Below are positions 6,090 to 42,392 of a DNA stretch of 64,000 nt, one piece after another. Within the stretch, counting starts at the first letter, position 1. Every line of letters starts with the position of its first letter. Position numbers and translations under genes: made by a program. The notes under the pieces were generated by a model. That model did no database searches. It had not been told where the DNA came from and saw only the letters and a list, made by a program, of their open reading frames with translations. Source of the DNA: Candidatus Eiseniibacteriota bacterium (GTDB lineage: Bacteria; Joyebacterota; Joyebacteria; Joyebacterales; Joyebacteraceae); contig JBDRFG010000106.1 in the NCBI GenBank assembly GCA_043819135.1, forward strand, positions 67,612-131,611. The letters are read 5' to 3'.

Positions 6090-6118
6090 TTGACAGCATT
6101 TGTGCCCGGTGCTAGACT
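6090..6118 (+). promoter_or_regulatory. sigma70-like promoter candidate for the BMC operon (TTGACA-N17-TAGACT)
   Basis: TTGACA at 6090-6095, 17-nt spacer, TAGACT at 6113-6118, about 95 nt upstream of the pduL start. Lies in an otherwise gene-free 700 bp region. Confidence 0.4.
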
Positions 6119-6213: not shown

Positions 6214-6951
6214 ATGGACGATGTCGAAAGGCTGGCTTCTGAGGTCCTGAGAAGGCTCAAGGGCAACGAACCCCGCGGCGGCGAGTCCGGTGTGGGCAAG
6301 CCTCAGGCGGACCAGTCGCGCGACGGCGGGTCGCCGAGCAGAGACGAGAGGGGCGGCCAGACGGGGGCCGGCGAAACTTCCTCGGGTATCCCGGTGACCG
6401 TGTCCGGGCGCCACATGCACATATCGAGGGGCGTCCTGGACCGGCTGTTCGGGGAGGGGTTCCAGCTGACCACGCTTCGCGACCTCGGTCAGCCCGGGGA
6501 ATTCGCCTCCGAGCAGACGGTGACCGTCGTTGGACGCTCGATGAAGGCCCTGGAGCGCGTGCGCGTGCTGGGGCCCGTGCGCACCTACACGCAGGTCGAG
6601 CTGTCCGGAACCGATGCCGTGCGCCTCGGGATCGAACCACCCGTAAGGAGATCCGGCGACCTCGTCGGAAGCGAGGGTGTCACGGTGGTCGGGCCGTCCG
6701 GATCGGTGCAGCTCAAAGAGGGCGCGATCATGTCGACCCGTCACGTTCACATGACCGAGCGTGACGCGAGGGAGTACGGGGTCGCCGACGGCGATCTTGT
6801 AAGAATGCGTTTCCCCGGCGACCGGGCAGTGGTTCTCGAGAAGGTACTGATCCGCGTCGGCAAGAGCGCGGCGCTTGAGCTTCACGTGGATACCGACGAT
6901 GCCAACGCCGCCGGAGTGCGGCTGCCGATGACCGTGAAGATCCTCAGCTGA
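6214..6951 (+). CDS. pduL: phosphate propanoyl/acyl-transferase PduL (BMC-associated phosphotransacylase) with N-terminal encapsulation peptide and long Gly/Ser/Arg linker
   Basis: Two PduL-type repeats with GRHMHIS and TRHVHMT metal-binding motifs and a C-terminal HVDTDDANAAG. N-terminal amphipathic helix VERLASEVLRRLKG followed by about 40 aa of low-complexity linker. GAGGA RBS. Confidence 0.85.
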   Translation: MDDVERLASEVLRRLKGNEPRGGESGVGKPQADQSRDGGSPSRDERGGQTGAGETSSGIPVTVSGRHMHISRGVLDRLFGEGFQLTTLRDLGQPGEFASEQTVTVVGRSMKALERVRVLGPVRTYTQVELSGTDAVRLGIEPPVRRSGDLVGSEGVTVVGPSGSVQLKEGAIMSTRHVHMTERDAREYGVADGDLVRMRFPGDRAVVLEKVLIRVGKSAALELHVDTDDANAAGVRLPMTVKILS

Positions 6952-6987: not shown

Positions 6988-7263
6988 TTGTCAGGCCTTG
7001 CACTGGGAATGGTCGAAACTAAGGGCGTGATAGGACTCATCGAGGCCACCGACGCCATGGTGAAGACCGCGAACGTTGTGTTGACGAAGTACGAGAAGAT
7101 AGGTGGGGGCTACGTAACGACGCTGGTCAGAGGCGACGTTGGCGCGGTCAAGGCGGCGGTGGCGGCGGGTGCGGAGGCCGCGCAGAAGATCGGCGAGTTG
7201 GTCTCCTACCACGTGATACCGGCGCCTCACGAAATGCTGGAGGATATACTGCTCAAACCGTAG
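6988..7263 (+). CDS. BMC-H shell protein (PduA/EutM-like hexamer, Pfam00936)
   Basis: [25 protein letters not shown]...[17 protein letters not shown] is a canonical BMC domain. TTG start with GGGGGAGG RBS 8 nt upstream. Confidence 0.9.
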
Positions 7264-7344: not shown

Positions 7345-7641
7345 ATGGGCGAAGCCCTTGGTATGATCGAAACGCGCGGTTTCATTGGCATGGTCGAGGC
7401 ATCCGACGCCATGGTCAAGGCCGCCCAGGTCACGCTGGTGCACTACGAGAAGGTGGGCGGAGGCTATGTCACCGCTCTCGTCAGAGGCGACGTGGCGGCG
7501 GTCAGGGCTGCCGTGGACGCCGGAACCGCCGCGGCCAGCAAGGTCGGCGAGCTGATCTCCACGCACGTCATCCCGAAGCCTCATGAGAGCCTCGAGGACG
7601 TGCTGCCCATCGGCAAGACGTCCAGAGCGAAGGCCAAGTAG
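7345..7641 (+). CDS. BMC-H shell protein (PduA/EutM-like) with short basic C-terminal tail
   Basis: [29 protein letters not shown]... canonical BMC domain. AGGAGG RBS 7 nt upstream of the ATG at 7345; the track ORF starts earlier at 7309. Confidence 0.9.
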
Positions 7642-7743: not shown

Positions 7744-8031
7744 ATGAATCTCGGTAAAGTCGTAGGGACCGTGGTCTCGACCAGGAAGGACGAGAAGCTG
7801 GTCGGCACGAAGCTTCTGGTCGTCAGACAGATTGATCCTTCGGGAAGCGAGACAGGGACGTTCGTCGTGGCCGTGGATGCGGTCGGCGCCGGAACGGGGG
7901 AGGTCGTGCTGTACGCCAGCGGAAGCTCCGCGAGGCAGACGACGCTGACCCAGGACAGGCCCGCCGACGCGGTCATCATGGCGATCGTCGACGCGATCGA
8001 GATCGGGGGCGAGGTACTCTACACCAAGTAG
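7744..8031 (+). CDS. BMC-P vertex pentamer protein (EutN/CcmL/PduN family)
   Basis: [27 protein letters not shown]...[13 protein letters not shown] matches the EutN_CcmL fold. Internal ATG at 7744 of the longer track ORF. Confidence 0.85.
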
Positions 8032-8134
8032 CCTCATTGCGGCGATCCCGGATGGGGAGGAGGTCCGATCAGCCTGTGGGCGCGGAGCTTCTGTCTCTGT
8101 GGGATCGCTGCACTGTATCGGGGACGGCCAGTCC

Positions 8135-9568
8135 ATGGGCAAGGACGAAGCGGGAATCGGAGCGATAGTCGACCAGGTGGTCGGTGAGCTCAAGGCGAAG
8201 GGAGTGCAGGTCGCGGCTCCCGAGTGCCCGCTGCCGTTCGACGGCAGGGGCATCCTTGCGGACATCGACAGCGCCGTGTCGGCGGCGCAGCGCAGCCTGG
8301 CGGAATCGCGCGAAATGCCCATGGCCATCAGGGAGGCCGCGGTCGCTTCGATGAGACGCGCCATACTCTCGAACCTCGACCGCCTCTCGAGAATGGCCGT
8401 GGACGAGACCGGCCTGGGCCGTTTCGAGGACAAGGTGCGCAAGAACCGCCTGGTCGCGACCAACACGCCGGGCACGGAGGACCTCCGACCGATCGCCTAC
8501 TCGGGCGATCACGGCCTCACTCTCGTCGAGCGCGCCCCCTACGGCATCATCGGTTCGATCACCCCTTCCACGAACCCGACCGAGACCATCATCGGCAACG
8601 CCATCAGCATGGTAGCGGGCGGCAACGTCGTAGTGTTCAATCCGCACCCGAGCGCCCGAGCGGTCTCGCTGACTTGCATCGATCTGCTCAACCGCGCCAT
8701 CACCGAGGCCGGAGGACCGCGCGCGCTCCTTCTGACGGTGGGTTCACCCTCGATCGAGACCGCGCAGGCTCTGATGGCTCACGAAGGCGTTCGCCTTCTC
8801 GTGGTAACGGGCGGGCCGGGCGTGGTCAGAGCGGCCATGCAGTCGGGCAAGAAGGTGGTGGCCGCCGGACCCGGCAATCCGCCTGTTGTGGTGGACGAGA
8901 CCGCGGACATCGCACGGGCCGGACGCGACATCGTCGCGGGAGCCAGCCTGGACAACAACATCGTCTGCATCGCCGAGAAGGAGATAGTCGCCGTCCGCGG
9001 CATTGTGCCGCAGCTCAAGGATGCCATGACCGACGCCGGAGGCGTCGAGGTCAAAGGCAGGGCCGCGGAGCGCCTGACCGATCTCATCGTGGAGAAGGAC
9101 GCGGGGAAAGGCAAGCCATCGAGCCTCAACCGCCGCCTCATAGGCAAGGACGTCAGCGTCATCCTCGAGGAGGCCGGACTGCCGTGCCCGGCGGGCTCCC
9201 GCCTCGCCTTCTTCGACGCCGACAGCTCGCACCCGCTTGTGTGGTCCGAGCAGATGATGCCGGTCATTCCGCTGGTGACAGTCGAGACCGCCGACGAGGC
9301 GATCAGCTTCGCCAAAGAGGTCGAGCGCGCATTCGGTCACACCGCGGTGATGCACTCGAGGAACATCGCCAATCTCTCGAGAATGGCCAGGCTCATGGAC
9401 GTCTCCATATTCGTCAAGAACGGCCCGTCCTACGCGGGCCTCGGGTTCGGTGGAGAGGGATTCACCACCTTCACGATCGCAAGCCCGACGGGAGAGGGTC
9501 TCACGCGGGCATCAACGTTCACGCGCGAGCGCCGGTGCACGCTCGTCGACTACTTCCGCATAATCTAG
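8135..9568 (+). CDS. CoA-acylating aldehyde dehydrogenase (PduP/EutE-like) with N-terminal encapsulation peptide
   Basis: ALDH-superfamily features with a catalytic Cys region (NNIVCIAEKE) and EutE-like length. N-terminal amphipathic helix GIGAIVDQVVGELKAKG ahead of the catalytic domain. Located in the BMC operon. Confidence 0.85.
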   Translation: MGKDEAGIGAIVDQVVGELKAKGVQVAAPECPLPFDGRGILADIDSAVSAAQRSLAESREMPMAIREAAVASMRRAILSNLDRLSRMAVDETGLGRFEDKVRKNRLVATNTPGTEDLRPIAYSGDHGLTLVERAPYGIIGSITPSTNPTETIIGNAISMVAGGNVVVFNPHPSARAVSLTCIDLLNRAITEAGGPRALLLTVGSPSIETAQALMAHEGVRLLVVTGGPGVVRAAMQSGKKVVAAGPGNPPVVVDETADIARAGRDIVAGASLDNNIVCIAEKEIVAVRGIVPQLKDAMTDAGGVEVKGRAAERLTDLIVEKDAGKGKPSSLNRRLIGKDVSVILEEAGLPCPAGSRLAFFDADSSHPLVWSEQMMPVIPLVTVETADEAISFAKEVERAFGHTAVMHSRNIANLSRMARLMDVSIFVKNGPSYAGLGFGGEGFTTFTIASPTGEGLTRASTFTRERRCTLVDYFRII

Positions 9569-9599: not shown

Positions 9600-10937
9600 G
9601 TGGCAGGAGCGACGGTCACGGCGATTCAGAAGGCAGGCGTCGTGGGCGCAGGTGGGGGCGGGTTCCCGACTCACATCAAGGCCGCCGCCGGCGCCGACAT
9701 CGTTCTGGCCAACGGCGCGGAGTGCGAACCACTTCTGAGGGCAGACACCGAGCTGATGTCGCGTGATGCCGAGCGGGTCGTCAGGGGACTCTCGATCGTC
9801 CGTGATTCCGTCGGCGCCGGGCGCGCTGTCATAGCGCTCAAGAAGAAGAACGCGCGCGCGCTCAACGCCATCGCGGGGGCGCTGTCCAGTGACAGCGGAG
9901 TAGAACTTCTGCCCCTGTCCAACGTGTACCCTGCCGGGGACGAGTTCCTTCTGGTGTTCGAGGCGACCGGACGCGTCGTGCCCGAGGGAGGCATACCGCT
10001 TGACGTGGGCGTGATCGTCAACAACGTGACGACGCTGGCCCAGGTAACAGACGCTGTCGAGGGACGTCCCGTCAGCGAAAAGATGGTCACGGTCCAGGGA
10101 GAGGTCGTCGCCCCTGGAACGTTCGTCACTCCGATAGGAACGTCCATCAATGAGCTGATCGCGAGCGCCGGCGGCGCAACGTGCGAAGACAGCGCGGTCG
10201 TGATAGGAGGCCCCATGATGGGGCACCTGATGCTCGACGGCGGTCAACCGACCACGAAGACCGTGGCCGGCGTCATCGTTCTTCCGGCCGACCATCGTCT
10301 CGTATCGTCAATGAGCTCCAGAGAGGCCCAGGTGCTCCGGCTCGCCAGAGCGGCGTGCTGTCAGTGCATGGCCTGCACCGAACTCTGTCCGCGTGCGCTC
10401 CTCGGCCACGGCCTCGAGCCTCACCGGACTGTGCGAGCCATCCAGTACGCCGAATTCCCGGAGGACCACAGGCACATAACCTCCGCATACCTCTGTTGCG
10501 AGTGCGGCATGTGCGAGCTCTTCGCGTGCCCGCTGGGAATCCAGCCCCGACGGATACTGGCTGACCTCAAGGCGGAACTGGTGCGGCGAGGCGTCCCGAA
10601 CCCGCACCGAAGAACGGACCTGTCGCCAGACGACGTGAGGGAGTACAGACAGATACCGACGGCGCGGCTCACGCGGAGACTGGGACTGGAGAGATACGAC
10701 GTTGACGCGCCGCTTCGCCCGGAACCGCTCTGTCCCTCGCGAGTGACGCTACGGATGAAACAGCACGTCGGCGAACCCGCCGTTCCGGTCGTCACGCCCG
10801 GCCAGACGGTCCTTAAGGGAGACGTCGTTGGAGAGGCCGCGGAGGACGTCGTGAGCGCAAGGGTGCACGCGAGCATCAGCGGCGTGGTCGAATCGGCAAG
10901 CGAGGACGCCGTGGTGATCGCGTCGGCGGACGCCTGA
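9600..10937 (+). CDS. PduS-like RnfC-family Fe-S flavoprotein (two 4Fe-4S ferredoxin motifs; NAD(H)/FMN-binding N-domain)
   Basis: N-terminal GVVGAGGGGFPTHIKAA (RnfC/NuoF-like nucleotide-binding domain). CxxCxxCxxxCP motif (CCQCMACTELCP) and a second Cys cluster (CCECGMCELFACP). Size and architecture match PduS. GTG start with GGAGGA RBS. Confidence 0.75.
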   Translation: MAGATVTAIQKAGVVGAGGGGFPTHIKAAAGADIVLANGAECEPLLRADTELMSRDAERVVRGLSIVRDSVGAGRAVIALKKKNARALNAIAGALSSDSGVELLPLSNVYPAGDEFLLVFEATGRVVPEGGIPLDVGVIVNNVTTLAQVTDAVEGRPVSEKMVTVQGEVVAPGTFVTPIGTSINELIASAGGATCEDSAVVIGGPMMGHLMLDGGQPTTKTVAGVIVLPADHRLVSSMSSREAQVLRLARAACCQCMACTELCPRALLGHGLEPHRTVRAIQYAEFPEDHRHITSAYLCCECGMCELFACPLGIQPRRILADLKAELVRRGVPNPHRRTDLSPDDVREYRQIPTARLTRRLGLERYDVDAPLRPEPLCPSRVTLRMKQHVGEPAVPVVTPGQTVLKGDVVGEAAEDVVSARVHASISGVVESASEDAVVIASADA

Positions 10938-10969
10938 CGAAACACGGGTGAAAGGGGAGGTACCGGTCG

Positions 10970-11518
10970 TTGAGAGAGGCAATCGGACTCATCGAGACAG
11001 TGAGCATCGCTATCGGCATCAGCGTGACCGATGAGATGGCCAAGACCGCCGATATCGAGGTGCTCGAATCGACGGCCATCTGTCCCGGCAAGTACATGGT
11101 CCTCATCGCGGGCGACGTGTCGTCCGTCGAGTCCTCGCTCAACCGCGGCATCGAGACGGGGGGGGACGTCGTGGTCGACACGCTCTTCATACCGCACGTC
11201 CACCCGCAGGTCTTCCCGGCGATCCTCGGAGCGACCGAGGTAGGGGACCTCCGTGCCCTTGGAGTCGTCGAGACGTTCACGGTCGCCTCGTCCATTCTGG
11301 CGGCAGACGCCGCCGCGAAGGCGGCGGGCGTCACACTGCTCGAGATACGACTGGCCAAGGGACTGGGTGGGAAGGCGTTCTTCACCATGATGGGAGAAGT
11401 GTTCGAGGTCGAGGCGGCCATGGAGGCCGCGCTTCGGGTGGCCAAGAGCGGCGGCAACCTCGTGAGGAGCGTCGTTATTCCCAGGCCGCACGAAAAGCTG
11501 CGTGCCAGCATACTGTAG
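10970..11518 (+). CDS. pduT: BMC-T shell protein, PduT-like tandem BMC-domain trimer with conserved Fe-S-ligating Cys
   Basis: Two tandem BMC domains (AIGLIETVSIA... and LGVVETFTVA...). The ICPGKYMVLIAGDVSSVESSL motif aligns with PduT, including the Cys that ligates the 4Fe-4S cluster. TTG start with AAAGGGGAGG RBS. Confidence 0.85.
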   Translation: MREAIGLIETVSIAIGISVTDEMAKTADIEVLESTAICPGKYMVLIAGDVSSVESSLNRGIETGGDVVVDTLFIPHVHPQVFPAILGATEVGDLRALGVVETFTVASSILAADAAAKAAGVTLLEIRLAKGLGGKAFFTMMGEVFEVEAAMEAALRVAKSGGNLVRSVVIPRPHEKLRASIL

Positions 11519-11542: not shown

Positions 11543-11812
11543 TTGCATCTTTGCAGAGTAATCGGCACGGTCTGGGCCACTCAGAAGGTCGACACCCTTA
11601 CGGGGTATCGCATGCTGGTCGTCCAGCCGCTCAGTCACGACCTCACGGAGAAGGGAACTCCAGTAGTCGCAGTGGACACGGTGAGCGCGGCGCCAGGGCA
11701 GCTGGTCTACATCGTTAAGTCGAGGGAGGCCGCCAAGGCCCTCGAGGAGCCTTTCAATCCGGTGGACGCGGCAATAGTGGGGATCGTCGACCACCTGCGC
11801 ACGTCGGCCTGA
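11543..11812 (+). CDS. BMC-P vertex protein (EutN/CcmL family), second paralog
   Basis: MHLCRVIGTVWATQKVDTLTGYRMLVVQP...VDTVSAAPGQLVYIV. TTG start with GGAGG RBS. Confidence 0.85.
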   Translation: MHLCRVIGTVWATQKVDTLTGYRMLVVQPLSHDLTEKGTPVVAVDTVSAAPGQLVYIVKSREAAKALEEPFNPVDAAIVGIVDHLRTSA

Positions 11813-11832: not shown

Positions 11833-12105
11833 ATGTTCATTGCCAGGGTCATCGGCGAGGTCGTCTCGACGACAAAGCACCCTGCGCTACGGGGCAGAAA
11901 ACTCCTCGTGATCGAGAAGCTCACGGAGATGGGCGAGCCAACTGGAGACTCACAGCTGGCGGTCGACTCGGTCGACGCGGGGGAGGGGGACACGGTGCTC
12001 GTCATGGACGAGGGCAGTTCGGCCGCGCTGGTCACCGAGATGGACAATCCGCCCATCCGTACGGTGATCGTGGGCGTCGTCGACAGCGTGGACATCGAGG
12101 AGTAG
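11833..12105 (+). CDS. BMC-P vertex protein (EutN/CcmL family), third paralog
   Basis: MFIARVIGEVVSTTKHPALRGRKLLVIEK...VDSVDAGEGDTVLV. GGAGG RBS. Three BMC-P paralogs are typical of PVM-type loci. Confidence 0.85.
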   Translation: MFIARVIGEVVSTTKHPALRGRKLLVIEKLTEMGEPTGDSQLAVDSVDAGEGDTVLVMDEGSSAALVTEMDNPPIRTVIVGVVDSVDIEE

Positions 12106-12110
12106 CTGAT

Positions 12111-12923
12111 TTGCGTTCCGAGTTCGAGGCGAGAAGAGAGATCGTCGAGATAGGCAGGAGGCTATGGGAACGCGGCTACGTCGCGGCGAACGACGGCAAC
12201 ATCAGCGCGAGACTGGGCGACAGGATCCTAGTGACGCCGACCGGGCTGTCAAAGGGGTTCCTGAAGCCTTCCGACATGGTCGTCGTCTCTCCATCCGGCG
12301 AGAAGTTGTCGGGAGAGCTGGACCCCACGTCCGAGCTCCCGATGCACCTGGCCGTCTACAGGGCGAGGGCCAACGTCAGCGCGGTCGTTCACGCGCATCC
12401 GCCGAAGGCGACCGGCTTCGCCGTCGCGGGCGTACCACTCGCGCAATGCGTGCTTCCGGAGGTCATACTCACCCTGGGCGAGGTGCCGCTGGCCGGATAC
12501 GCGACTCCGTCGACCGAGGAGGTAGCGCGGTCGGTCAGTGAGTTCATCCCGCGCTACAACGCGATACTCCTGAGCAACCACGGCGTCCTCACGCTCGGGC
12601 GCGACCTGTCGCAGGCCTACTACCGCATGGAGACCGTTGAGCACTTCGCAGAGATAACGCTCGCTGCGAAGGCTCTGGGCGGGCCGTCGCCGCTCTCGAG
12701 CGACGACGTGCGAAAGCTCCTGAGCGTGCGGGACAAGCTCGGCCTGGAAACCGTGGCCGAGTGCACTGACTGCGGAGCATGCGCGGGCGCTTCGGCACCG
12801 GGCGGCGGTTCTACACCGGGCGGCGTCCCTCAGAAGGACGCCGAACCAGACGAAGAAGAGGTGGTCCGGGCCGTCCTGGCTCGGCTTGGCAAACTCATGG
12901 ATGAGAAAGGTGACCGGAGATGA
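12111..12923 (+). CDS. class II aldolase/adducin-family aldolase (L-fuculose-/L-rhamnulose-1-phosphate aldolase-like) with C-terminal extension (Cys motif + linker + amphipathic encapsulation helix)
   Basis: Class II aldolase features: the AVVHAHPP metal-binding His cluster and the VTPTGLSKG phosphate-binding loop. About 50 extra C-terminal residues: CTDCGAC, then a Gly/Ser/Pro linker, then EEEVVRAVLARLGKLMDE. TTG start with GAGGAG RBS. Confidence 0.8.
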   Translation: MRSEFEARREIVEIGRRLWERGYVAANDGNISARLGDRILVTPTGLSKGFLKPSDMVVVSPSGEKLSGELDPTSELPMHLAVYRARANVSAVVHAHPPKATGFAVAGVPLAQCVLPEVILTLGEVPLAGYATPSTEEVARSVSEFIPRYNAILLSNHGVLTLGRDLSQAYYRMETVEHFAEITLAAKALGGPSPLSSDDVRKLLSVRDKLGLETVAECTDCGACAGASAPGGGSTPGGVPQKDAEPDEEEVVRAVLARLGKLMDEKGDRR

Positions 12924-13813
12924 CACGTAAAGGATGCATCTGGGGATGGCTCATCGGCGTGCTCGCGCTGCTCGTCATCTTCCTCGTGACGATAGTGACC
13001 ATAGAATCGCTGCTGGGTCAGCAGCTGTCGCTCCCGTCCTACGGGGCGCGTGTCGGGCTCATCAGGGTGGAGGGGAGTATCTACGACTCCAGGCAGATCA
13101 TAGCGGACCTGGAGCAGATGGTCGGCAATCCGGGTATCAGCGCCATCGTCCTGAGGGTCGACAGCCCCGGTGGCGGAGTGGCCGCATCGCAGGAGATATT
13201 CGAGTACATCCGGGACGTCCAGGAGCAGGACGTACCGCTGGTCGTGTCGATGGGCTCCGTGGCCGCCTCCGGAGGTTACTACATAGCGTGCACGGCGGAC
13301 ACGATCGTCGCCAATCCAGGCACCCTGACGGGCAGCATCGGCGTCATCATGTCGTTCACCAATCTTGAGGAGCTGTTCGGGAAGCTCGGGATGGACTTCG
13401 AGGTCATAAAGAGCGGCAGATTCAAGGATGTGGGCTCCATGAGCAGGGAGATGACCGACGATGAACGGGAACTCCTGCAGGAGACCATCGACGACATACA
13501 CGCGCAGTTCATCGAGGCGGTTGCTGCGGGCAGGGGAATGGAGTACGACGCTGTCGCCGCGTTGGCCGACGGACGCATCTTCTCCGGCCGTCAGGCGCTC
13601 GAGGTCGGGCTCGTGGACCAGCTGGGGACTCTGGAGGACGCCGTGAGCATCGCGGCCCGCAGGGGCGGGATCGAGGGCGAACCCCGCGTGCAGGAGCCCG
13701 TCAGGCGTCAGCGGTTGACGCTCTGGGACCTTCTTTCGGGCGCCGCGTCGAGACTCCTTCCGCCCGAGGCCTCAAGCCTCGGTGCTCACTACATGTACAG
13801 GCCCTCCAAGTGA
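12920..13813 (+). CDS. sppA: signal peptide peptidase SppA (S49 family, 36K type)
   Basis: N-terminal TM helix and S49 motifs (SMGSVAASGGYYIA with the Ser nucleophile; GVIMSF). ATGA start/stop overlap with the aldolase gene. Confidence 0.8.
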   Translation: MTRKGCIWGWLIGVLALLVIFLVTIVTIESLLGQQLSLPSYGARVGLIRVEGSIYDSRQIIADLEQMVGNPGISAIVLRVDSPGGGVAASQEIFEYIRDVQEQDVPLVVSMGSVAASGGYYIACTADTIVANPGTLTGSIGVIMSFTNLEELFGKLGMDFEVIKSGRFKDVGSMSREMTDDERELLQETIDDIHAQFIEAVAAGRGMEYDAVAALADGRIFSGRQALEVGLVDQLGTLEDAVSIAARRGGIEGEPRVQEPVRRQRLTLWDLLSGAASRLLPPEASSLGAHYMYRPSK

Positions 13814-13827: not shown

Positions 13828-13862
13828 TTTGACAGACCCGCCCCCGCTTGTTAGGATGTGCT
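13828..13862 (+). promoter_or_regulatory. sigma70-like promoter candidate (TTGACA-N17-TAGGAT) upstream of the HU/IHF gene
   Basis: Sequence match in the intergenic region. Leaves a 5' UTR of about 145 nt containing the palindrome GGGACA-C-TGTCCC (13951-13963). Confidence 0.35.
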
Positions 13863-14006: not shown

Positions 14007-14360
14007 ATGACGAAAGCCGACCTTGTGGATATCGTCGCAGGCAAGACAGGCCTCACGAAACGGGATGTAGCCCAGGTCGTGGAAGCTCTGCTCGAGGCCA
14101 TAAAGGCCTCGCTTGCGACTCACAAGCACATAGAGATCAGGGAATTCGGCACCTTCAAGGTCAAGCGGCGCAAGGCCAGCATGAAGTACAACCCCCGGGA
14201 TCGCTCCCAGAAGGTGGTGGTCCCTCAGAAGATGGTACCCGTTTTCAAACCGAGTAGATTTCTGAAGGAGAGGGTCAACTGGAGCGGGCAGGAAGGGGTG
14301 TCTGACACCGTCCCCGGCCCGGGGTCCGAAACAGAAAGCTCAGAGGAGGCCAATGTCTAG
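14007..14360 (+). CDS. HU/IHF-family nucleoid-associated DNA-binding protein
   Basis: MTKADLVDIVAGKTGLTKRDVAQVVEALLEAI...REFGTFKVKRRKA...NPRD is the canonical HU/IHF fold with a C-terminal extension. ACGGAGG RBS. Confidence 0.8.
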   Translation: MTKADLVDIVAGKTGLTKRDVAQVVEALLEAIKASLATHKHIEIREFGTFKVKRRKASMKYNPRDRSQKVVVPQKMVPVFKPSRFLKERVNWSGQEGVSDTVPGPGSETESSEEANV

Positions 14361-14448
14361 TCTCAAGAAGAAGCGACGAGCCAAGATGGCGAAGCACAAG
14401 CTCAAGAAGAGGCGCAGGAAGGACCGTCACAAGAAGAAGAACCGCTAG
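14353..14448 (+). CDS. small basic protein, bS22-like (AURKAIP1/COX24-domain 30S ribosomal protein bS22 candidate), 31 aa
   Basis: Not in the ORF track (below 60 aa). ATG at 14353 preceded by AGGAGG at optimal spacing. Product MSSLKKKRRAKMAKHKLKKRRRKDRHKKKNR matches the KKRRxxMxKxKxKKxLxRxRHKKK pattern of bS22. Overlaps the HU stop by 8 nt. Confidence 0.5.
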   Translation: MSSLKKKRRAKMAKHKLKKRRRKDRHKKKNR

Positions 14449-14464: not shown

Positions 14465-15016
14465 GTGCCAAAGAGGTCGCTCGACGTTAGGAAGGTGACG
14501 AGGCTCGTGAATCACGGGCCCACTGTGCTGGCCTCGAGCCGGCATGCGGAGAGAAGTAACGTCATCACATTGGCTTGGGCGATGCCTGTCAGCATCGATC
14601 CACCGATGATTGGTATAGCGGTAGCGCCGGCGCGCTTCTCCCATGACCTGATAGCGCGCTCCGGGGAATTCGTGGTGAACATCCCCGGATCCAATCTACT
14701 GCAGGCCGTCTGGTACTGCGGGACGGCCTCCGGACGGGACGGTGACAAGTTCGAGGAAGCCGGCCTGACCGAGGCTCCGGGCAGCGTTGTTGGGGCGCCC
14801 CTTGTAATGGAGTGCTTCGGGCACGCGGAATGCAGGGTTGTCTCGGCACCGATAACTGGGGACCACACGCTGTTTGTGGGAGAGGTCGTTGCTGCATCCG
14901 TGGAGAGTTCCGCCTTTGACGGGCACCTGCGGCTGCGAAGGCCCTACCACACGCTGCATCATCTGGGCGGCTCGCGCTTCGTAACGTCTGCGGGCACAAG
15001 GCTGAACGCCGCCTAG
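14465..15016 (+). CDS. flavin reductase-like domain protein (FMN-binding split barrel)
   Basis: 183 aa; the pattern VITLAWAMPVSIDPPMIGIAV...FVVNIP...HTLFVGEV is typical of the Flavin_Reduct family. GTG start. Confidence 0.7.
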   Translation: MPKRSLDVRKVTRLVNHGPTVLASSRHAERSNVITLAWAMPVSIDPPMIGIAVAPARFSHDLIARSGEFVVNIPGSNLLQAVWYCGTASGRDGDKFEEAGLTEAPGSVVGAPLVMECFGHAECRVVSAPITGDHTLFVGEVVAASVESSAFDGHLRLRRPYHTLHHLGGSRFVTSAGTRLNAA

Positions 15017-37159: not shown

Positions 37160-37942
37160 GTGCTCCCGCTACGGTCCCGGTCGCATTCAGTCGGACACAC
37201 CTGGCAGGTCCTGAGCGCGGCGAGGGACGCAGTCCTTTCGTTCCTGTTCCCGGACAGGTGTGTGGCCTGCGAAACGGCCCTCGGAGCCTCACGACGGCAC
37301 CTCTGTTCCGTGTGCGAGTCCGGACTGAGTGCTCGAAACGGCTCGCTGGCACTGCCCGGGCTCGGTGACGGGCCCGGGTGGCCGCGGGCGAGCACGCGGG
37401 CTTTCTACGCCCTGGAGTTCGAGGGGGTGACGCGCGCGATGGTTCACGCGCTCAAGTACGAGGGCAGAACCTCGCTGGCCGGCGACCTCGCCGCCATCGC
37501 CCTTCCCGCAGCACTCGGTGCGTGCGACGCGCCGCCGGACTTCGTGACGCCGGTTCCGCTTCATCCGCTCCGCCTCAGAGAGAGGGGCTTCAATCAGAGT
37601 GAGCTTCTGGCCGCCCGGCTGGCGGCCGCGATGAGCGTGCCCGTTCGAACGACGCTCAAGAGAGTCCTGCACACGCCGGCTCAGGCGCGCCTGCCCAGGC
37701 GTCAGAGGCTCGCGATGCCGTCCTCGGCCTTCCGCGAGACCGGGGACGCCGCGGGCCTCGGCCGCGTTCTGCTCGTGGACGACGTCGTGACCACCGGTGC
37801 GACCCTCGCCGCTGCCTCGCTGGCCCTTCTCCGCGCCGGAGCGGGGGAGGTCATCTGCTTCGCGCTGGCAGGAACTCCATCGAGAGAGCCAGCGGGGCGC
37901 GCCTCGCCGAAAGCGGTTGACTGTGCTCGGAGCGAGCACTAG
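37160..37942 (+). CDS. comFC: ComF-family phosphoribosyltransferase-domain protein
   Basis: N-terminal Cys4 zinc ribbon (CVACE...CSVCE); C-terminal PRTase motif LLVDDVVTTGATL. GTG at 37160 chosen as start; start uncertain. Confidence 0.65.
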   Translation: MLPLRSRSHSVGHTWQVLSAARDAVLSFLFPDRCVACETALGASRRHLCSVCESGLSARNGSLALPGLGDGPGWPRASTRAFYALEFEGVTRAMVHALKYEGRTSLAGDLAAIALPAALGACDAPPDFVTPVPLHPLRLRERGFNQSELLAARLAAAMSVPVRTTLKRVLHTPAQARLPRRQRLAMPSSAFRETGDAAGLGRVLLVDDVVTTGATLAAASLALLRAGAGEVICFALAGTPSREPAGRASPKAVDCARSEH

Positions 37943-38006
37943 AATCCGGAGTTCGGGCGCAGGAACCAGGGCGCGCACTAAGCGAACAGCGAGGCGGGAG
38001 GTCAAG

Positions 38007-39062
38007 ATGAAGGTCGCGGTTCTCACCGGTGGCGGAGACTGCCCCGGGCTGAATGCCGTCATCAGGGCGATCGTACGGCGTACCATAGGGAAGTACGGGG
38101 GGGAGGTCGTCGGGTTCCGGTACGGTTGGGCCGGTGTCATCGAGAACAACCAGATGCCGCTCGGACTCGAGCAGGTCTCTGGTATCCTCCCGAGAGGCGG
38201 GACCATCCTCGGAACGTCGCGGACGAATCCATACAGGGTCGAGGGAGGATTCGAGGCGATCAAGAGGACCGTCGAACAGGAGAAGCTCGACGGTTTGATC
38301 GCGATCGGCGGTGAGGACACGCTGGGTGTTGCGCACAAGCTCTACCGAGAAGGCCTGCCGATCGTCGGCGTGCCCAAGACCATCGACAACGACATCAACG
38401 GTACGGACTTCACGTTCGGCTTTGACACCGCCGTTCACATCGCGACCGAGGCCATCGACCGACTGCACACCACGGCCGAGTCGCACAACCGCGTCGTCGT
38501 GGTAGAGGTGATGGGACGCCACACCGGGTGGATCGCCGTGAAGGCGGGCATAGCCGGAGGAGCGGACCTGATCCTCATCCCCGAGATCCCGTTCCGGATG
38601 CAGGACGTGTTCGAGACTATCAAGAAGCGTCACGCCCGCGGGAAGAACTTCAGTATCGTCGTGGTGGCGGAGGGCGCGAAGCTGCCCGGCGGTGCGCACG
38701 AGAAGGACGAGGAGGAGGGCGAGCTCGTTCTCCAGCAGGGGAGCGCCGACGCCTTCGGCCACGTGCGGCTGGGGGGCATAGGCAATGCACTCGCCACGGC
38801 CATCGAGCAGGAGACCGGGTTCGAAACGAGGGTCACGGTGCTCGGCTACACGCAGCGCGGCGGGACCCCGACGGCGTTCGACCGCGTGCTCGGCACGAGA
38901 TTCGGCGTGGTCGCAGCGGATCTCGTCCATGCGAAGGAGTTCGGCAAAATGGTCAGCCTTCACGGTGACAAGGTGATACCGATCGAGATGTCTCATGCCA
39001 TCGAACGCCTGAAGGTCGTCGATACGGAGCTCTACGAGGTGGCGAGGACTTTCTTCGGGTAG
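38007..39062 (+). CDS. pfk: 6-phosphofructokinase, probably pyrophosphate-dependent (PfkA family, Asp/Lys at the ATP-vs-PPi specificity positions)
   Basis: MKVAVLTGGGDCPGLNAVIRA. IGGEDT (Asp where ATP-PFKs have Gly104) and PKTIDNDI (Lys where ATP-PFKs have Gly124). Confidence 0.85.
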   Translation: MKVAVLTGGGDCPGLNAVIRAIVRRTIGKYGGEVVGFRYGWAGVIENNQMPLGLEQVSGILPRGGTILGTSRTNPYRVEGGFEAIKRTVEQEKLDGLIAIGGEDTLGVAHKLYREGLPIVGVPKTIDNDINGTDFTFGFDTAVHIATEAIDRLHTTAESHNRVVVVEVMGRHTGWIAVKAGIAGGADLILIPEIPFRMQDVFETIKKRHARGKNFSIVVVAEGAKLPGGAHEKDEEEGELVLQQGSADAFGHVRLGGIGNALATAIEQETGFETRVTVLGYTQRGGTPTAFDRVLGTRFGVVAADLVHAKEFGKMVSLHGDKVIPIEMSHAIERLKVVDTELYEVARTFFG

Positions 39063-39161
39063 TCCGTAAACGGGACGTGCGCTGGCGGAGAACGCACAAC
39101 TCACGACCGAGTCGAAGCGGGCCGGGGCCTCGGTGGACCGGCGCGCGGGAACGGAGACACA

Positions 39162-40085
39162 ATGGGGCTTTTGACCAACAACGACCTGATGGTGCCGGCC
39201 AGAGTCGGCGGTTATGCCGTAGGCGCGTTCAACACGAGCAATCTGGAGACGACGAGGGCCATATTCGAGGCCGCCCAGGAGCTCGGGTCTCCCGTTATCG
39301 TTGCGACGTCGCAGTCGGCGATCACATACGCGGGCTACGACAACATTCGCTGCATGGTCGAGAACATGGCCAGAGCCACCGGTGTGCGGGCGTCGCTTCA
39401 CCTTGATCACGGGACCGACCCCGCCGTCATAGAGCAGTGCCTCGAGCACGGGTGGACCTCCATAATGATCGACGGATCGCACCTGCCTTTTGAGGAGAAC
39501 ATCGCGGCGACGAAGAAGGTCGTCGAGATGTGTCGCCCACGCGGAGTATCCGTCGAGGGAGAGCTGGGACGGCTGATGGGCGTAGAGGACGAGATCTCCG
39601 TGTCAGCCGACCAGGCCATCTACACCGACCCGGACCAGGCGGTGGAATTCGTCCAGCGCTCAGGTTGCGATTCTCTCGCCATCGCAATAGGGACCTCGCA
39701 CGGCGCCTACAAGTTCAAGGCGCAGCCGAAGCTCGCGATCGAGCGGCTGCAGAAGATCGCGGCGACGGTCGCCGTGCCGCTCGTGCTGCACGGGGCGTCC
39801 GCCGTGCCGCCGGACGTGCTCGAGCTGGCCACTCGCTACGGAGCCCAGCTGCCGGGCGCGAAGGGTGTCCCACCCGAGAGCATCCGGGAGGCCATCGGAG
39901 GCGGGATATCCAAGGTCAACATCGACACTGATCTCAGACTCGCGTTCACGGGCCGTGTGCGGCAATTCCTGGCGGAGAGCCCGGAAGCGTTCGATCCGCG
40001 GAAGATACTGTCCGCAGCGATCGACGGAATGAAGGACGTCATCAGATCGAAGATCGAGCTGTTCGGCTCGGGCGGGAAGGCCTAG
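39162..40085 (+). CDS. fba: class II fructose-1,6-bisphosphate aldolase
   Basis: Zn-dependent FBA/TBP aldolase pattern (HLDHG, GxxHG). 307 aa. Located in the glycolytic operon. Confidence 0.85.
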   Translation: MGLLTNNDLMVPARVGGYAVGAFNTSNLETTRAIFEAAQELGSPVIVATSQSAITYAGYDNIRCMVENMARATGVRASLHLDHGTDPAVIEQCLEHGWTSIMIDGSHLPFEENIAATKKVVEMCRPRGVSVEGELGRLMGVEDEISVSADQAIYTDPDQAVEFVQRSGCDSLAIAIGTSHGAYKFKAQPKLAIERLQKIAATVAVPLVLHGASAVPPDVLELATRYGAQLPGAKGVPPESIREAIGGGISKVNIDTDLRLAFTGRVRQFLAESPEAFDPRKILSAAIDGMKDVIRSKIELFGSGGKA

Positions 40086-40093
40086 GAGGACAC

Positions 40094-41098
40094 ATGGGGT
40101 TCAAGTTCGCGATCAACGGTTTCGGGAGGATCGGCAGGCTCGTTCTGCGCGTGGCGTCGGAGATGGACGGGTTCGATTGCGTGGCGGTGAATGACCTCAC
40201 GGACGCGGGAACAATGGCACACCTCCTCAAGTACGACTCGGTGCACGGGAAGTTCGGCGCGGAGATCTCGCACGACGACAGCTCAATAACGGTGAACGGC
40301 GACAGGTTCGCGTTCCACTCCGAGCGCGACCCCGCGAATCTGCCGTGGGGAGACCTCGGCGTCGACGTAGTCATCGAGTCGACGGGACACTTCAGGGACA
40401 GACCCGGGGCAGGCAAGCACCTGAGCGCCGGCGCGCGCAAGGTGATGATCTCGGCCCCCGCCAAGGACCCTGACGTGATGATAGTGATGGGCGTGAACGA
40501 TCAGGACTACGATCCTGCCAAGCATCACATCATCTCGACTGCGTCCTGCACGACCAACTGCGCAGCTCCGATGATCAAGGTCCTTCATGAGAGCTTCGGC
40601 GTCGTCAAGGGCATCATGACGACAGTGCACGCCTATACGAACGACCAGAAGATACTCGACTCCCCTCACAAGGACCTCCGACGCGCGAGAGCGGCGGCCG
40701 TCTCGATGATCCCGACGACCACCGGTGCGGCCAAGGCCATCACGACCGTGATGCCTGAGCTCGCCGGGAAGCTCGATGGGCTCGCCGTGCGCGTGCCCAC
40801 GCCCGACGGGTCGCTCGTCGACTTCGTCGTGCAGGTTGAGAAGAAGACCTCGGCCGCGGAGGTCAACGACGCGTTCCGAGCCGCGGCCCAGAGTCCGCCC
40901 CTCACGGGCTTTCTCAAGTACAGTGAGGAGCCGCTCGTGTCGATCGACATCGTCGGAGACCGCCACTCCTGCATCTTCGACAGCCCGTTGACGATCGTCA
41001 TGGACGGTGACATGGTCAAGATCTTTGGCTGGTACGACAACGAGGCCGGCTACGCGTCGCGCATGGTCGACATGATGAAGCTTGTCGCCAGCAGGTGA
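40094..41098 (+). CDS. gap: glyceraldehyde-3-phosphate dehydrogenase
   Basis: INGFGRIGR, ASCTTNC, catalytic Cys. AGGAGG RBS. Confidence 0.95.
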   Translation: MGFKFAINGFGRIGRLVLRVASEMDGFDCVAVNDLTDAGTMAHLLKYDSVHGKFGAEISHDDSSITVNGDRFAFHSERDPANLPWGDLGVDVVIESTGHFRDRPGAGKHLSAGARKVMISAPAKDPDVMIVMGVNDQDYDPAKHHIISTASCTTNCAAPMIKVLHESFGVVKGIMTTVHAYTNDQKILDSPHKDLRRARAAAVSMIPTTTGAAKAITTVMPELAGKLDGLAVRVPTPDGSLVDFVVQVEKKTSAAEVNDAFRAAAQSPPLTGFLKYSEEPLVSIDIVGDRHSCIFDSPLTIVMDGDMVKIFGWYDNEAGYASRMVDMMKLVASR

Positions 41099-41108
41099 GG
41101 TTGTTCCC

Positions 41109-42308
41109 ATGCACAGAAAGCTGCACATCACGGATCTGGACCTTGCGGGGAAGCGCGTTCTGACCCGCGTTGACTTCAACGTGCCCCTGGCTCCTGACGG
41201 CTCCATCACCGACGACACGCGCATCAGGAGAGCCCTCCCGACGATACGATACATCATCGAGTCGGGAGGCAGAGTGGTCCTCGCATCGCACCTGGGCAGG
41301 CCCAAGGGCGAGGTGCTGCGAACGATGAGCCTGAAACCCGCCGCCGCCCGTCTGGCCAAGCTGCTCGAGCGCAAGGTCGTTATGGGACCCGACTGCGTCG
41401 GCGACACGACCGAAGGCCTGGCGGCGCGAATGAGCGACGGCGAGGTGCTGCTGCTCGAGAATCTGCGCTTCCACGCGGGCGAGACGAGCAACGAGAGCGA
41501 CTTCGCGCGGCGTCTGGCCCGTATGGGCGACGTCTACGTCAACGACGCGTTCGGCACCGCGCACAGAGCTCACGCCTCCACCGTCGGGGTCACGGAGTTC
41601 TTCGAACACAGAGCGATGGGCTTCCTGATCGAAACGGAGCTTCTCAATCTCTCGAAGGCCACGGACGACCCCAGGAAGCCGTACGTCGCCATCCTCGGAG
41701 GAGCCAAGGTCTCAGACAAGATAGGTGTCATTGACAACCTGCTTCCCAAGGTCGATGAGCTTCTGATCGGCGGAGGGATGGCCTTCACGTTCCTCGCCGC
41801 GCAAGGGAGGGGAGTGGGCAACTCACTCCTTGAGGAAGACCGGATCGAGACGGCCACCGCGCTTCTGGCAAAGGCTGAGAGATTAGGGAAGACACTGGTG
41901 CTTCCGACCGACATCGTGGTCGCCGACTCGGTCGCCGATGGCGCCGCGTCGAAGACCGTCGACGTCGACAGTATTGAGCCCGGATGGCACGGCGTCGACA
42001 TAGGCCCCCAGACGGTGGACGAGTTCGGGCGGAAGATAGCGCGCGCGCAGACCATCGTGTGGAACGGGCCCCTCGGGGTGTTTGAGATCCCGGCGTTCGC
42101 GGCAGGAACACTGGGCGTCGCACAGGCCGTCGCCGCGAGAACCGACTCGGGCGCGACGAGCATCGTCGGGGGCGGGGATTCCGCCTCGGCGGTCGTGGCG
42201 GCGGGACTCGGGGGACGCATGACGCACATCTCCACCGGAGGCGGCGCTTCCCTGATGTTCCTGGAAGGCAGACCGCTGCCCGCCATAGAGGCACTGTCCG
42301 ACGCGTAG
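41109..42308 (+). CDS. pgk: phosphoglycerate kinase
   Basis: VDFNVP, ASHLGRPKG and GGGASLE motifs. Start trimmed to the ATG at 41109. Confidence 0.95.
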   Translation: MHRKLHITDLDLAGKRVLTRVDFNVPLAPDGSITDDTRIRRALPTIRYIIESGGRVVLASHLGRPKGEVLRTMSLKPAAARLAKLLERKVVMGPDCVGDTTEGLAARMSDGEVLLLENLRFHAGETSNESDFARRLARMGDVYVNDAFGTAHRAHASTVGVTEFFEHRAMGFLIETELLNLSKATDDPRKPYVAILGGAKVSDKIGVIDNLLPKVDELLIGGGMAFTFLAAQGRGVGNSLLEEDRIETATALLAKAERLGKTLVLPTDIVVADSVADGAASKTVDVDSIEPGWHGVDIGPQTVDEFGRKIARAQTIVWNGPLGVFEIPAFAAGTLGVAQAVAARTDSGATSIVGGGDSASAVVAAGLGGRMTHISTGGGASLMFLEGRPLPAIEALSDA

Positions 42309-42392
42309 GAACCGGGACGTGCGCGGAAAGGACTCACCGGGGAAACTCGTATCGATGCCCGTCCGCAAGGACGGCCGAGGAGCGAAAGACCC

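Follow-up and report, generated by a model that had tools for sequence, protein, structure and literature searches.

A predicted MNdh/BMC-T^SE module for electron export in an aldolase-type microcompartment locus of Candidatus Eisenbacteria

Background

The shuttling of electrons by PduS and PduT, with PduS in place of a missing alcohol dehydrogenase (AlcDH), was already raised by Axen et al. 2014 (PMC4207490). PduS was renamed MNdh (metabolosome NADH dehydrogenase), and its partner BMC-T^SE, by Sutter et al. 2024 in PNAS (PMC11626177), who counted 361 AlcDH-less loci and established MNdh/BMC-T^SE as a general mechanism. The complex characterised in that work comes from the GRM1 (choline) locus of Clostridium botulinum; NADH-driven reduction of the shell cluster was shown, with EPR, voltammetry and NADH-oxidation data. 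The Fe-S potentials are -349, -217 and -147 mV and give electrons a downhill path from NADH to the shell cluster. O2 is an acceptor of the complex in vitro, the site of O2 reduction being left unresolved there, and the removal of O2 is discussed. Several types of bacterial microcompartment (BMC) are described in the same paper as having no known recycling system.

Among the locus types of the 2021 BMC catalogue (PMC8217296, Supplementary Data 2), those matching the locus analysed here are MIC4, MUF3 and MIC7; the PVM and SPU loci are also related to it. The locus lies in a 64-kb window, by which we mean the whole stretch of DNA analysed, part of a 144,625-bp MAG contig. An earlier note had read two of its genes as a possible electron conduit, which would be a distinct strategy of cofactor recycling. 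We compared the locus with the described systems, with related contigs and with a cross-phylum sample of genomes.

Results and discussion

Judged from its genes, the surrounding locus is an aldolase/AldDH microcompartment. A cassette of ten genes, all on the forward strand, runs in the order PduL, two BMC-H, BMC-P, CoA-acylating AldDH, MNdh, BMC-T^SE, two BMC-P and class II aldolase. The candidate operon promoter is a promoter-like site on the same strand (6090..6118; TTGACA-17 nt-TAGACT, with TG before the -10; consensus scan only), about 95 nt 5' of pduL and inside a 700-nt intergenic gap that follows polysaccharide genes. The PduL-type phosphotransacylase (6214..6951; Pfam PTAC E 4.1e-67; NCBIfam NF011652 234.9 bits, cut-off 209) has at its N-terminus the encapsulation peptide DDVERLASEVLRRLK, then a low-complexity linker, and the amphipathic helix is kept in relatives. 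Two shell hexamer proteins follow, BMC-H 1 (91 aa, 6988..7263; Pfam BMC E 1.9e-28) and BMC-H 2 (98 aa, 7345..7641; Pfam BMC E 6.1e-30); the ORF of the latter opens at 7309, its likely start is the ATG at 7345 after AGGAGG, and its relatives also have 98 aa. The first pentamer protein, BMC-P 1 (95 aa, 7744..8031; Pfam EutN_CcmL E 1.9e-30), has an ORF that opens at 7654 with the domain from residue 31; its likely start is the ATG at 7744, and relatives measure 89-96 aa.

The AldDH (PduP/EutE type, 8135..9568; Pfam Aldedh; NCBIfam NF011927 622.8 bits, cut-off 403) bears the N-terminal encapsulation peptide GIGAIVDQVVGELKAKG. Its ORF opens at 8099, and the N-terminal helix and the start at 8135 align with relatives of 474-477 aa. 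This enzyme is the predicted source of lumenal NADH and, as far as gene content indicates, the sole NADH producer of the cassette. Downstream of the MNdh and BMC-T^SE genes, BMC-P 2 (89 aa, 11543..11812; Pfam EutN_CcmL E 1.2e-28) and BMC-P 3 (90 aa, 11833..12105; Pfam EutN_CcmL E 8.6e-27) make the BMC-P triplet complete, and the last gene encodes the presumed signature enzyme, a class II (FucA-like) aldolase (12111..12923; Pfam Aldolase_II E 8.9e-50). Comparison with relatives shows that the encapsulation peptides on PduL, AldDH and aldolase are conserved.

Five related Eisenbacteria-type contigs retain the cassette, and an unrelated genome, L008, has the identical gene order. The E-values together with this conserved synteny place the features of the locus far beyond chance. 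Two neighbouring genes were considered as further components and rejected. The S49 peptidase that overlaps the aldolase stop codon, a candidate compartment protease, matches signal peptide peptidase SppA (TIGR00706, 240 bits, cut-off 155), carries a transmembrane helix at its N-terminus and is missing from L008. A flavin reductase (14465-15016), considered as the external electron acceptor, was rejected as a member of the module: it stands behind SppA, HU and a 31-aa basic ORF, has its own promoter-like site and is lacking in the L004 and L008 loci.

The MNdh gene (9600..10937, 445 aa) and the BMC-T^SE gene (10970..11518, 182 aa) are separated by 32 nt, and an ORF check reproduced exactly both ends, 9600 and 11518, given in the earlier note. 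MNdh was assigned by Pfam, by alignments to RnfC and to homologues, and by an AF2 model. Its domains are Complex1_51K (PF01512, residues 9-150, E 1.5e-40), SLBB (PF10531, residues 162-208, E 3.7e-09), the 4Fe-4S dicluster Fer4_17 (residues 252-314, E 2.6e-12) and a C-terminal RnfC_N (PF13375, residues 378-437, E 2.9e-15), which is the order expected of MNdh. Residues 14-25, VVGAGGGGFPTH, form a glycine-rich stretch (GAGGGGFPT), and there are two ferredoxin-type motifs, C253-x2-C256-x2-C259-x3-C263-P and C299-x2-C302-x2-C305-x4-C310-P. RnfC (7zc6) aligns in two pieces of swapped order (query 375-433 to RnfC 26-83, query 6-312 to RnfC 124-416); by this alignment RnfC_N is circularly permuted relative to RnfC and NuoF, and the same permutation is reported for MNdh in PMC11626177.

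In the same alignment GVVGAGGGGFPTHIK, NGAECEPLL and YPAGDE line up with RnfC motifs, marking the predicted FMN/NADH site. Across 62 MNdh homologues, down to 44% identity, GAGG-FP, NG-EC-P and P-GDE are invariant or nearly so, and none of the eight Fe-S Cys varies in either of two alignments. The AF2 model (pLDDT 94.3, pTM 0.92) has an RnfC-like predicted fold: the top five Foldseek matches in the PDB are all RnfC chains (E 1e-24 to 2e-21, TM 0.63-0.65), and one RnfC chain among the best matches is NADH-bound (rmsd about 2.6-3.0 A; best match E 1e-24, TM 0.64). No encapsulation peptide was found on MNdh in the comparison with relatives, which is consistent with direct docking of the predicted protein onto a shell protein.

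BMC-T^SE, a PduT-type tandem-BMC trimer protein assigned by Pfam and by PDB alignments, contains two BMC domains (PF00936, Pfam E 5.6e-42), and its size and single-layer two-PF00936 layout fit the PduT type (about 180-190 aa). Its best PDB matches, aligned over the full length, are 3nwg and the PduT structures 3pac and 3n79 (E 5e-48 to 5e-41). Within the sequence STAICPGKY the Cys is residue 38, which aligns column for column with the ICPGK Cys38 of Citrobacter PduT (3pac) and stands opposite the Ser engineered into mutant chain 4nwn (ISPGK); the ICPGK-type motif is kept in the BMC-T of relatives. Cys38 is therefore a predicted ligand of a trimer-pore [4Fe-4S] cluster. What the earlier note had seen in the two ORFs was confirmed: the RnfC/NuoF-type nucleotide-binding domain and two Cys clusters of the 445-aa protein by Pfam, motifs and RnfC alignment, and the PduT cluster-ligating Cys (ICPGK) of the 182-aa tandem-BMC protein by its alignment to 3pac. 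The further checks that it proposed found the FMN/NADH and Fe-S ligand motifs intact (7zc6 alignment, 62 homologues) and the PduT Fe-S ligand present in the alignment to PduT structures.

The note had also described the locus as lacking both an alcohol dehydrogenase (ADH) and a B12 enzyme, and this is borne out in the window and within ±10 kb of five syntenic relatives. A Pfam scan of about 60 ORFs, which cover practically every credible ORF of the 64 kb, detected no Fe- or Zn-alcohol dehydrogenase or Ldh/Mdh, no B12-dependent enzyme (diol dehydratase, ethanolamine ammonia-lyase), reactivase or adenosyltransferase, and no acetate kinase, rnfABDEG or DeoR regulator, and the window has no unassigned gap big enough for an ADH of about 380 aa. 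All loci of the comparison were also searched by tblastn with E. coli FucO, EutG, AdhP, Mdh, AckA, PflB, EutB and EutC; neither the window nor the Eisenbacteria-type loci gave a match. Within ±10 kb, no ADH, Mdh, B12 or rnf gene occurs in the five Eisenbacteria-type relatives or in L008. Neither of the findings that the note had named as contrary to its reading, an ADH or B12 enzyme flanking the locus or the 445-aa protein beside rnf genes, was encountered in the window and relatives.

The association of the two genes extends well beyond this clade. A census covered a cross-phylum sample of 80 other genomes (best identity to MNdh 49%, with no Eisenbacteria genome among them), in which, among the matches listed, 74 MNdh genes share their locus with a BMC-T. 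Together with the window and six relatives this makes 81 MNdh-associated BMC-T genes. In 81/81 of these pairs, among the matches listed plus the window and relatives, BMC-T lies downstream of MNdh on the same strand and keeps the pore Cys (C-P/S/A-G-K/R/H); the two genes are immediate neighbours in all pairs except six. The neighbours of MNdh in every context examined are an AldDH upstream and a Cys-bearing BMC-T downstream. The co-occurrence of PduS and PduT with aldolase loci, which the earlier note had suggested checking, was found in eight loci with MNdh and class II aldolase among the matches listed for the 80 genomes, and an ADH in none of them (0/8).

We therefore regard the two genes, at a probability of about 0.8, as an MNdh/BMC-T^SE module of a catabolic microcompartment that would export electrons to recycle NAD+. 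In the pathway suggested by family membership, the encapsulated class II aldolase would split a ketose-phosphate into DHAP and an aldehyde; by analogy, L-fuculose 1-phosphate or L-rhamnulose 1-phosphate is a possible substrate, with lactaldehyde as the aldehyde formed. The encapsulated CoA-acylating AldDH would convert the aldehyde to acyl-CoA, reducing NAD+ to NADH, and PduL would regenerate CoA and release acyl-phosphate. Because NAD(H) would be confined to the lumen and the window encodes no alcohol dehydrogenase, MNdh would dock on the BMC-T^SE trimer, probably on its lumenal face, and oxidise NADH at FMN. Electrons would then pass through the two [4Fe-4S] clusters of MNdh to the trimer-pore [4Fe-4S] cluster held by three Cys38, and on to a final acceptor that is presumably cytosolic (ferredoxin, flavodoxin or O2); no candidate cytosolic acceptor protein for the module is identifiable near the locus. 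By analogy, this particular pair may act likewise in vivo. The conduit re-oxidising AldDH-made NADH that the earlier note proposed is thus supported by the predicted flavin and Fe-S sites, which are intact, by the adjacent pore Cys, by an AldDH predicted as the sole NADH producer and by the lack of ADH, B12 and rnf genes in the regions searched.

This pair resembles the characterised MNdh/BMC-T^SE (PMC11626177) in its four domains with permuted C-terminal RnfC_N, in its FMN/NADH and 2x[4Fe-4S] motifs, in a BMC-T directly downstream with a CP(G/S)K pore Cys, in the co-occurrence of an AldDH and in the lack of an AlcDh in the locus. The characterised pair belongs to C. botulinum GRM1, whereas the present one belongs to an uncultured, aldolase-type Eisenbacteria locus and is known from sequence.

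Compared by gene content, and not by the shell-protein HMM 'colour' clades or AldDh tree of the catalogue (PMC8217296), the locus shares with MIC4 and MUF3 an AldDh with N-terminal encapsulation peptide, PTAC (PduL), a pfam00596 aldolase, a PduS homologue beside a PduT-type BMC-T with pore cysteine, and no AlcDh; with MIC4 it also shares the BMC-P triplet. Both types have a pfam00871 acetate kinase in their loci, whereas none is present in the 64-kb window or in the flanks of the relatives. Moreover, the catalogue places MIC4 in Actinobacteria, Bacteroidetes, Calditrichaeota, KSB1, Firmicutes and Ignavibacteria, and MUF3, which has a single BMC-P, in Clostridia. MIC7 (Candidatus Latescibacteria, Candidatus Eisenbacteria) agrees in phylum, the DNA analysed here coming from a Candidatus Eisenbacteria MAG (MFH1690136.1), in a standard and a second BMC-H, in the BMC-P triplet and in an AldDh with N-terminal encapsulation peptide, described as closest to the SPU AldDh; in two of its six loci a Cys-bearing BMC-T stands beside a PduS homologue. 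However, AldDh is the only enzyme of MIC7 besides its shell proteins, whereas PduL, MNdh and a class II aldolase are also found here, and the satellite BMC-T^dp of MIC7 was not found in the window.

The PVM of Planctomycetes and Verrucomicrobia (fucose/rhamnose; Erbilgin et al. [quoted passage not shown] According to the same reports, PVM loci encode acetate kinase, a DeoR regulator and, for the recycling of NAD+, an Ldh/Mdh-family protein, and Pfam detects none of these three in the window; in addition MNdh/BMC-T^SE is rare in PVM and lies in satellite loci in 18/20 occurrences, whereas here it stands in the middle of the main cassette, and the phylum is another one. The earlier note had counted PVM among canonical loci that use an ADH, which does not hold, the predicted NAD+ recycler of PVM being a lactate/malate-dehydrogenase-family protein and not an iron ADH (PMC4207490). 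Outside Eisenbacteria, the MNdh proteins closest to this one (47-49% identity), like several of the closest AldDHs, belong to DERA/RpiB loci of the SPU type (PMC11585597), the nearest non-Eisenbacteria AldDHs including ones from DERA-type loci. Such loci share the core order PduL, BMC-H, ..., AldDH, MNdh, BMC-T, but their DERA (pfam01791) and RPI (pfam02502) are absent here, with a class II aldolase instead.

The aldolase, 30% identical to E. coli FucA, has E75, H94, H96 and H157 aligned with FucA E73, H92, H94 and H155, all invariant in 65 homologues. No NCBIfam equivalog cut-off is passed, and the best NCBIfam and PDB matches are split among 3-oxo-tetronate-4-P decarboxylase, ribulose-1-P aldolase and FucA. 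The catalytic domain is followed by a CxxCGxC motif (nt 12762-12782), a disordered linker and the C-terminal encapsulation peptide (nt ~12846-12908). CxxCGxC is nearly invariant in most encapsulation-peptide-bearing homologues, across several phyla. No description of it was found in the searchable literature, and it is possibly undescribed, the only such item of the locus. The L006 aldolase is without the motif, yet L006 keeps MNdh and BMC-T, and a tie between the motif and the presence of MNdh was rejected on this ground. In the AF2 model of the aldolase pLDDT falls below 60 around the motif, so that the model is uninformative on a metal site. It is rather unlikely, although conceivable, that CxxCGxC binds a metal or Fe-S centre, linking the aldolase to the MNdh/BMC-T^SE path or making its activity or packaging redox-dependent; if it did, the compartment would have a second, cargo-borne redox site.

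This motif also bears on the alternative that survives best, an electron conduit whose main role is not NAD+ regeneration and which carries reducing power into the lumen, scavenges O2 inside the shell or services a redox site on the cargo. Besides the conserved CxxCGxC, the reduction of O2 by the characterised complex in vitro and the discussed removal of O2 (PMC11626177) speak for such a role, and electron transfer along an Fe-S chain is reversible in principle. We nevertheless consider it unlikely, because the AldDH is the only NAD-dependent enzyme of the cassette and makes NADH in the catabolic direction, the published potentials are downhill from NADH to the shell cluster, and L006 keeps the pair with an aldolase devoid of the Cys motif.

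Another alternative is that the pair is an inactive evolutionary remnant, with BMC-T only a structural tile and NAD(H) exchanged through shell pores. Some SPU2 loci do have a Cys-bearing BMC-T without PduS (PMC8217296, Supplementary Data 2), and the BMC types without known recycling system (PMC11626177) fit the same idea. It is very improbable given cofactor ligands invariant in the 62 homologues, 60-84% identity among the MNdh proteins of the Eisenbacteria clade, a gene-like GC3 (0.78 for MNdh and 0.84 for BMC-T, similar to neighbour genes), and the pore Cys and adjacency recorded above for the 81 pairs.

We hold it to be just as improbable that MNdh works as the cobalamin reductase for which PduS was named at first, which would reduce cob(III)alamin or cob(II)alamin and so supply a B12-dependent cargo enzyme with regenerated adenosylcobalamin. 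This was the role in which PduS was initially described in Salmonella and Citrobacter (work cited in PMC4207490 and PMC11626177), and MNdh is a PduS homologue with the same domain set. However, the class II aldolase that serves here as signature enzyme is metal-dependent, the window has no diol dehydratase, ethanolamine ammonia-lyase, reactivase or adenosyltransferase, the syntenic relatives give no EutB/EutC match, and PMC11626177 reports NADH turnover without cobalamin and argues for an at most indirect role of B12.

That MNdh belongs as RnfC to a membrane-bound Rnf complex (ferredoxin:NAD+ oxidoreductase) and is no more than a neighbour of the shell genes is hardly credible: homologues are named 'RnfC' in source databases, RnfC chains are the best structural matches, and fold, predicted FMN/NADH site and two [4Fe-4S] motifs are RnfC-like, but the best NCBIfam model, TIGR01945 rnfC, scores 241.6 bits under a cut-off of 245.95, RnfC_N (the barrel-sandwich domain) is permuted to the C-terminus instead of being N-terminal, rnfA, B, D, E and G are all missing from the 64 kb, and the partner is a shell protein, with AldDH and Cys-bearing BMC-T as constant neighbours in the contexts examined.

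Conclusions

The distinct cofactor-recycling strategy that the earlier note had seen in this locus turns out to be a published one (PMC4207490, PMC11626177). Recycling of NAD+ by electron export had been proposed before and was put to a biochemical test in 2024, so that the present locus is one more ordinary instance of it, and current understanding is unchanged because concept, distribution and biochemistry are already in print. With four enzymes only and no competing ADH, the cassette could be a compact ten-gene test case for the MNdh model. It adds one more phylum-level example, from Candidatus Eisenbacteria, of a metabolosome that apparently recycles NAD+ by electron export through the shell alone. 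With electron export as the sole recycling route, the whole of the aldehyde would go to acyl-CoA, without an alcohol by-product.

The MNdh/BMC-T pair and its cassette

The PduS-like protein (MNdh) and the PduT-like shell protein (BMC-T) are encoded within a cassette of 10 genes, all on the same strand, with a promoter-like site at 6090-6118. The genes encode, in order, PduL (6214-6951), two BMC-H proteins (6988-7263 and 7345-7641), a first BMC-P (7744-8031), a CoA-acylating aldehyde dehydrogenase (AldDH, 8135-9568), MNdh (9600-10937), BMC-T (10970-11518), a second and a third BMC-P (11543-11812 and 11833-12105) and a class II aldolase (12111-12923). The mechanical ORF starts of the second BMC-H (7309), the first BMC-P (7654) and AldDH (8099) are too early; they were replaced by the ATG codons at 7345, 7744 and 8135 because of the alignment with relatives and the RBS-like sequences upstream. 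AldDH and PduL score above the NCBIfam cut-offs for PduP/EutE-type dehydrogenase and phosphate propanoyltransferase, respectively. [quoted passage not shown]

The 445-aa MNdh, whose position agrees exactly with that in the earlier note, is indeed a PduS-like Fe-S flavoprotein. It carries the glycine-rich motif VVGAGGGGFPTH (residues 14-25) and two ferredoxin-type motifs, C253xxC256xxC259xxxC263P and C299xxC302xxC305xxxxC310P, and Pfam recognizes Complex1_51K (E 1.5e-40), SLBB (E 3.7e-09), a 4Fe-4S dicluster domain (E 2.6e-12) and, towards the C-terminus, an RnfC_N barrel-sandwich domain (residues 378-437, E 2.9e-15). The FMN/NADH glycine-rich motifs and 8/8 cysteines are invariant among 62 homologues. 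The AlphaFold2 model (pLDDT 94.3, pTM 0.92) is matched best by RnfC chains, one of them NADH-bound (E 1e-24, TM ~0.64), and next by NuoF-type subunits. The alignment with RnfC (7zc6) falls into two pieces in swapped order, which demonstrates that MNdh is circularly permuted. An identical sequence is known from a Candidatus Eisenbacteria MAG (MFH1690136.1), and about 80 clusters of 60-92% identity are present in metagenomes.

BMC-T, likewise at the position given in the earlier note, is a 182-aa tandem BMC-domain protein (two stretches, E 5.6e-42, Pfam) with Cys38 in the sequence ICPGK. In the PDB it is closest to 3nwg and to the PduT structures 3pac and 3n79; Cys38 falls in the column of ICPGK in 3pac and of the serine in the ISPGK mutant chain 4nwn, so that it aligns with the cluster-ligating cysteine of PduT.

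Absent genes and flanking regions

The credible ORFs of the entire 64-kb window, which is part of a 144,625-bp contig, were scanned with Pfam. Within these limits no alcohol dehydrogenase (ADH) of any family, Ldh/Mdh, B12-dependent enzyme, adenosyltransferase, acetate kinase or rnfABDEG gene was detected. In the window, therefore, neither of the situations that the earlier note had named as contrary to its reading was found, namely an ADH or B12 enzyme beside the locus, or an RnfC accompanied by other rnf genes.

The cassette is flanked on the 5' side by polysaccharide-synthesis genes and on the 3' side by genes for SppA, HU, a 31-aa basic ORF, a flavin reductase and PilZ, followed by housekeeping genes. 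The S49 peptidase gene (12920-13813) has a 4-nt overlap with the aldolase stop codon; the product matches SppA (signal peptide peptidase) and has an N-terminal transmembrane helix. The gene is syntenic in all Eisenbacteria-type loci and missing beside the corresponding cassette of L008, an unrelated genome, and is probably an unrelated, co-transcribed housekeeping gene. The PF01613 flavin reductase (14465-15016), encoded 1.5 kb past the 3' end of the cassette, would be an attractive electron partner outside the shell and was rejected: among the relatives, L001, L003 and L006 have the gene and L004 and L008 do not, and a promoter-like site of its own (13829-13857) precedes it.

The very basic 31-aa ORF (14353-14448; MSSLKKKRRAKMAKHKLKKRRRKDRHKKKNR) overlaps the end of the HU gene, and a gene of 31 aa is called at the matching place in L001, L002, L003, L004 and L006; it may resemble the small ribosomal protein bS22. 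About 25 kb downstream, phosphofructokinase, class II fructose-bisphosphate aldolase, GAPDH, phosphoglycerate kinase and triosephosphate isomerase are contiguous (37797-43157); this glycolytic cluster could be a sink for DHAP from the compartment, but looks like housekeeping. Two further genes, unrelated to the MNdh/BMC-T finding, encode a 1192-aa C25 (gingipain-family) peptidase (44172-47750) and an NHL-repeat protein (62215-63825), both ending in a FlgD_ig-like domain, which suggests secreted or surface proteins.

Relatives of the locus and census

Five Eisenbacteria-type contigs (MNdh 62-75% identical) have the same cassette and the same flanking genes, and all five lack an ADH. In L008 (GCA_964604955.1) the 10 genes follow one another in identical order between other flanks, with an aldolase 53% and an MNdh ~41% identical to those of the window. 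Among the matches listed, the nearest non-Eisenbacteria MNdhs (47-49% identity) belong to DERA/RpiB (SPU-type) loci, which share the PduL...AldDH-MNdh-BMC-T core; the closest outside relatives of AldDH come from DERA-type and aldolase-type loci mixed.

A census was made of 80 species genomes among the matches listed, a sample and not a full count. BMC-T is present in the locus in 74 of the 80, AldDH occurs within ±10 kb in 55 and any ADH or Mdh match in only 9. A class II aldolase is found too in 8/80 (Nitrospinaceae, Anaerolineae, Planctomycetota, Actinomycetota, Bacillota and others), with an ADH in none of these eight. With the window and 6 relatives added to the 74 census genomes, BMC-T is downstream of MNdh on the same strand in 81/81 cases, directly adjoining in all but six, and the pore cysteine is always kept (CPGK 51, CSGK 15, CAGK 6, CPGR/H 9).

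A cysteine motif in the aldolase

The aldolase is below every NCBIfam equivalog cut-off and keeps the metal and catalytic residues of FucA (E75, H94, H96 and H157, equivalent to FucA E73, H92, H94 and H155). Between its class II aldolase domain and the C-terminal encapsulation peptide lies a CxxCGxC motif (CTDCGAC, residues 218-224, 12762-12782), which 105 of the 120 best homologues share and which hardly varies in an alignment of 65 sequences; C113 in the catalytic domain is a fourth nearly invariant cysteine. Other loci with the motif include L008, L015, L017 and L066, and it occurs in Planctomycetota, Nitrospinaceae and Anaerolineae. The AF2 model is of low confidence around it, and no description was found in the accessible parts of the BMC catalogue, the SPU paper and the full-text searchable literature. 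In one Eisenbacteria-type locus the aldolase has no such motif although MNdh and BMC-T are retained, and therefore motif and module are not strictly coupled.

Proposed electron export and published systems

Axen et al. (2014, PMC4207490) had already drawn attention to PduS where a locus has no B12 enzyme and to the conserved cysteine of PduT, and had suggested electron shuttling and substitution for the missing AlcDH; a locus from Latescibacteria that combines AldDH, PduL, PduS and a class II aldolase was described by them as well. According to Supplementary Data 2 of Sutter et al. (2021, PMC8217296), locus type MIC4 contains AldDh, PTAC, a pfam00596 aldolase, acetate kinase, a BMC-P triplet and PduS/PduT with the pore cysteine, and differs from our cassette in its acetate kinase; MUF3 has the same enzymes as MIC4; MIC7, from Latescibacteria and Eisenbacteria, has PduS and a Cys-bearing BMC-T in two loci and resembles the cassette in phylum and shell, while its set of enzymes differs. 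The cassette is not a member of PVM, since it has no Ldh/Mdh-type dehydrogenase, acetate kinase or DeoR regulator and belongs to another phylum. The pair was renamed MNdh/BMC-T^SE by Sutter et al. (2024, PMC11626177), who found it in 2,172 of >7,000 loci and counted 361 loci lacking AlcDh; their C. botulinum complex binds FMN and Fe-S and oxidizes NADH with a kcat of 20 s-1, EPR showed that NADH reduces its BMC-T^SE cluster, and redox potentials were measured.

Our evidence fits this model. NADH produced in the lumen by AldDH would be oxidized at the FMN of MNdh, which would sit on the lumenal face of the BMC-T trimer, and the electrons would travel via two [4Fe-4S] clusters to the one at the pore and on to an acceptor outside. 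Our analysis shows the sequence and fold features, the adjacency of the genes, the encapsulation signals and the absence of the genes named above, whereas activity, orientation, substrate and acceptor are inferred; an electron conduit re-oxidizing the NADH of AldDH is well supported. The earlier note described a real feature and interpreted it correctly; the "distinct cofactor-recycling strategy" proposed there is, in the light of Sutter et al. 2024 and the earlier papers, the current published model.

When L005, L008, L010 and L011 are compared with the window, the degree of similarity between the MNdhs does not track the type of locus, in line with the published opinion that the module is passed from one compartment type to another. 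The pair described here belongs to this known, recently characterized MNdh/BMC-T^SE module.
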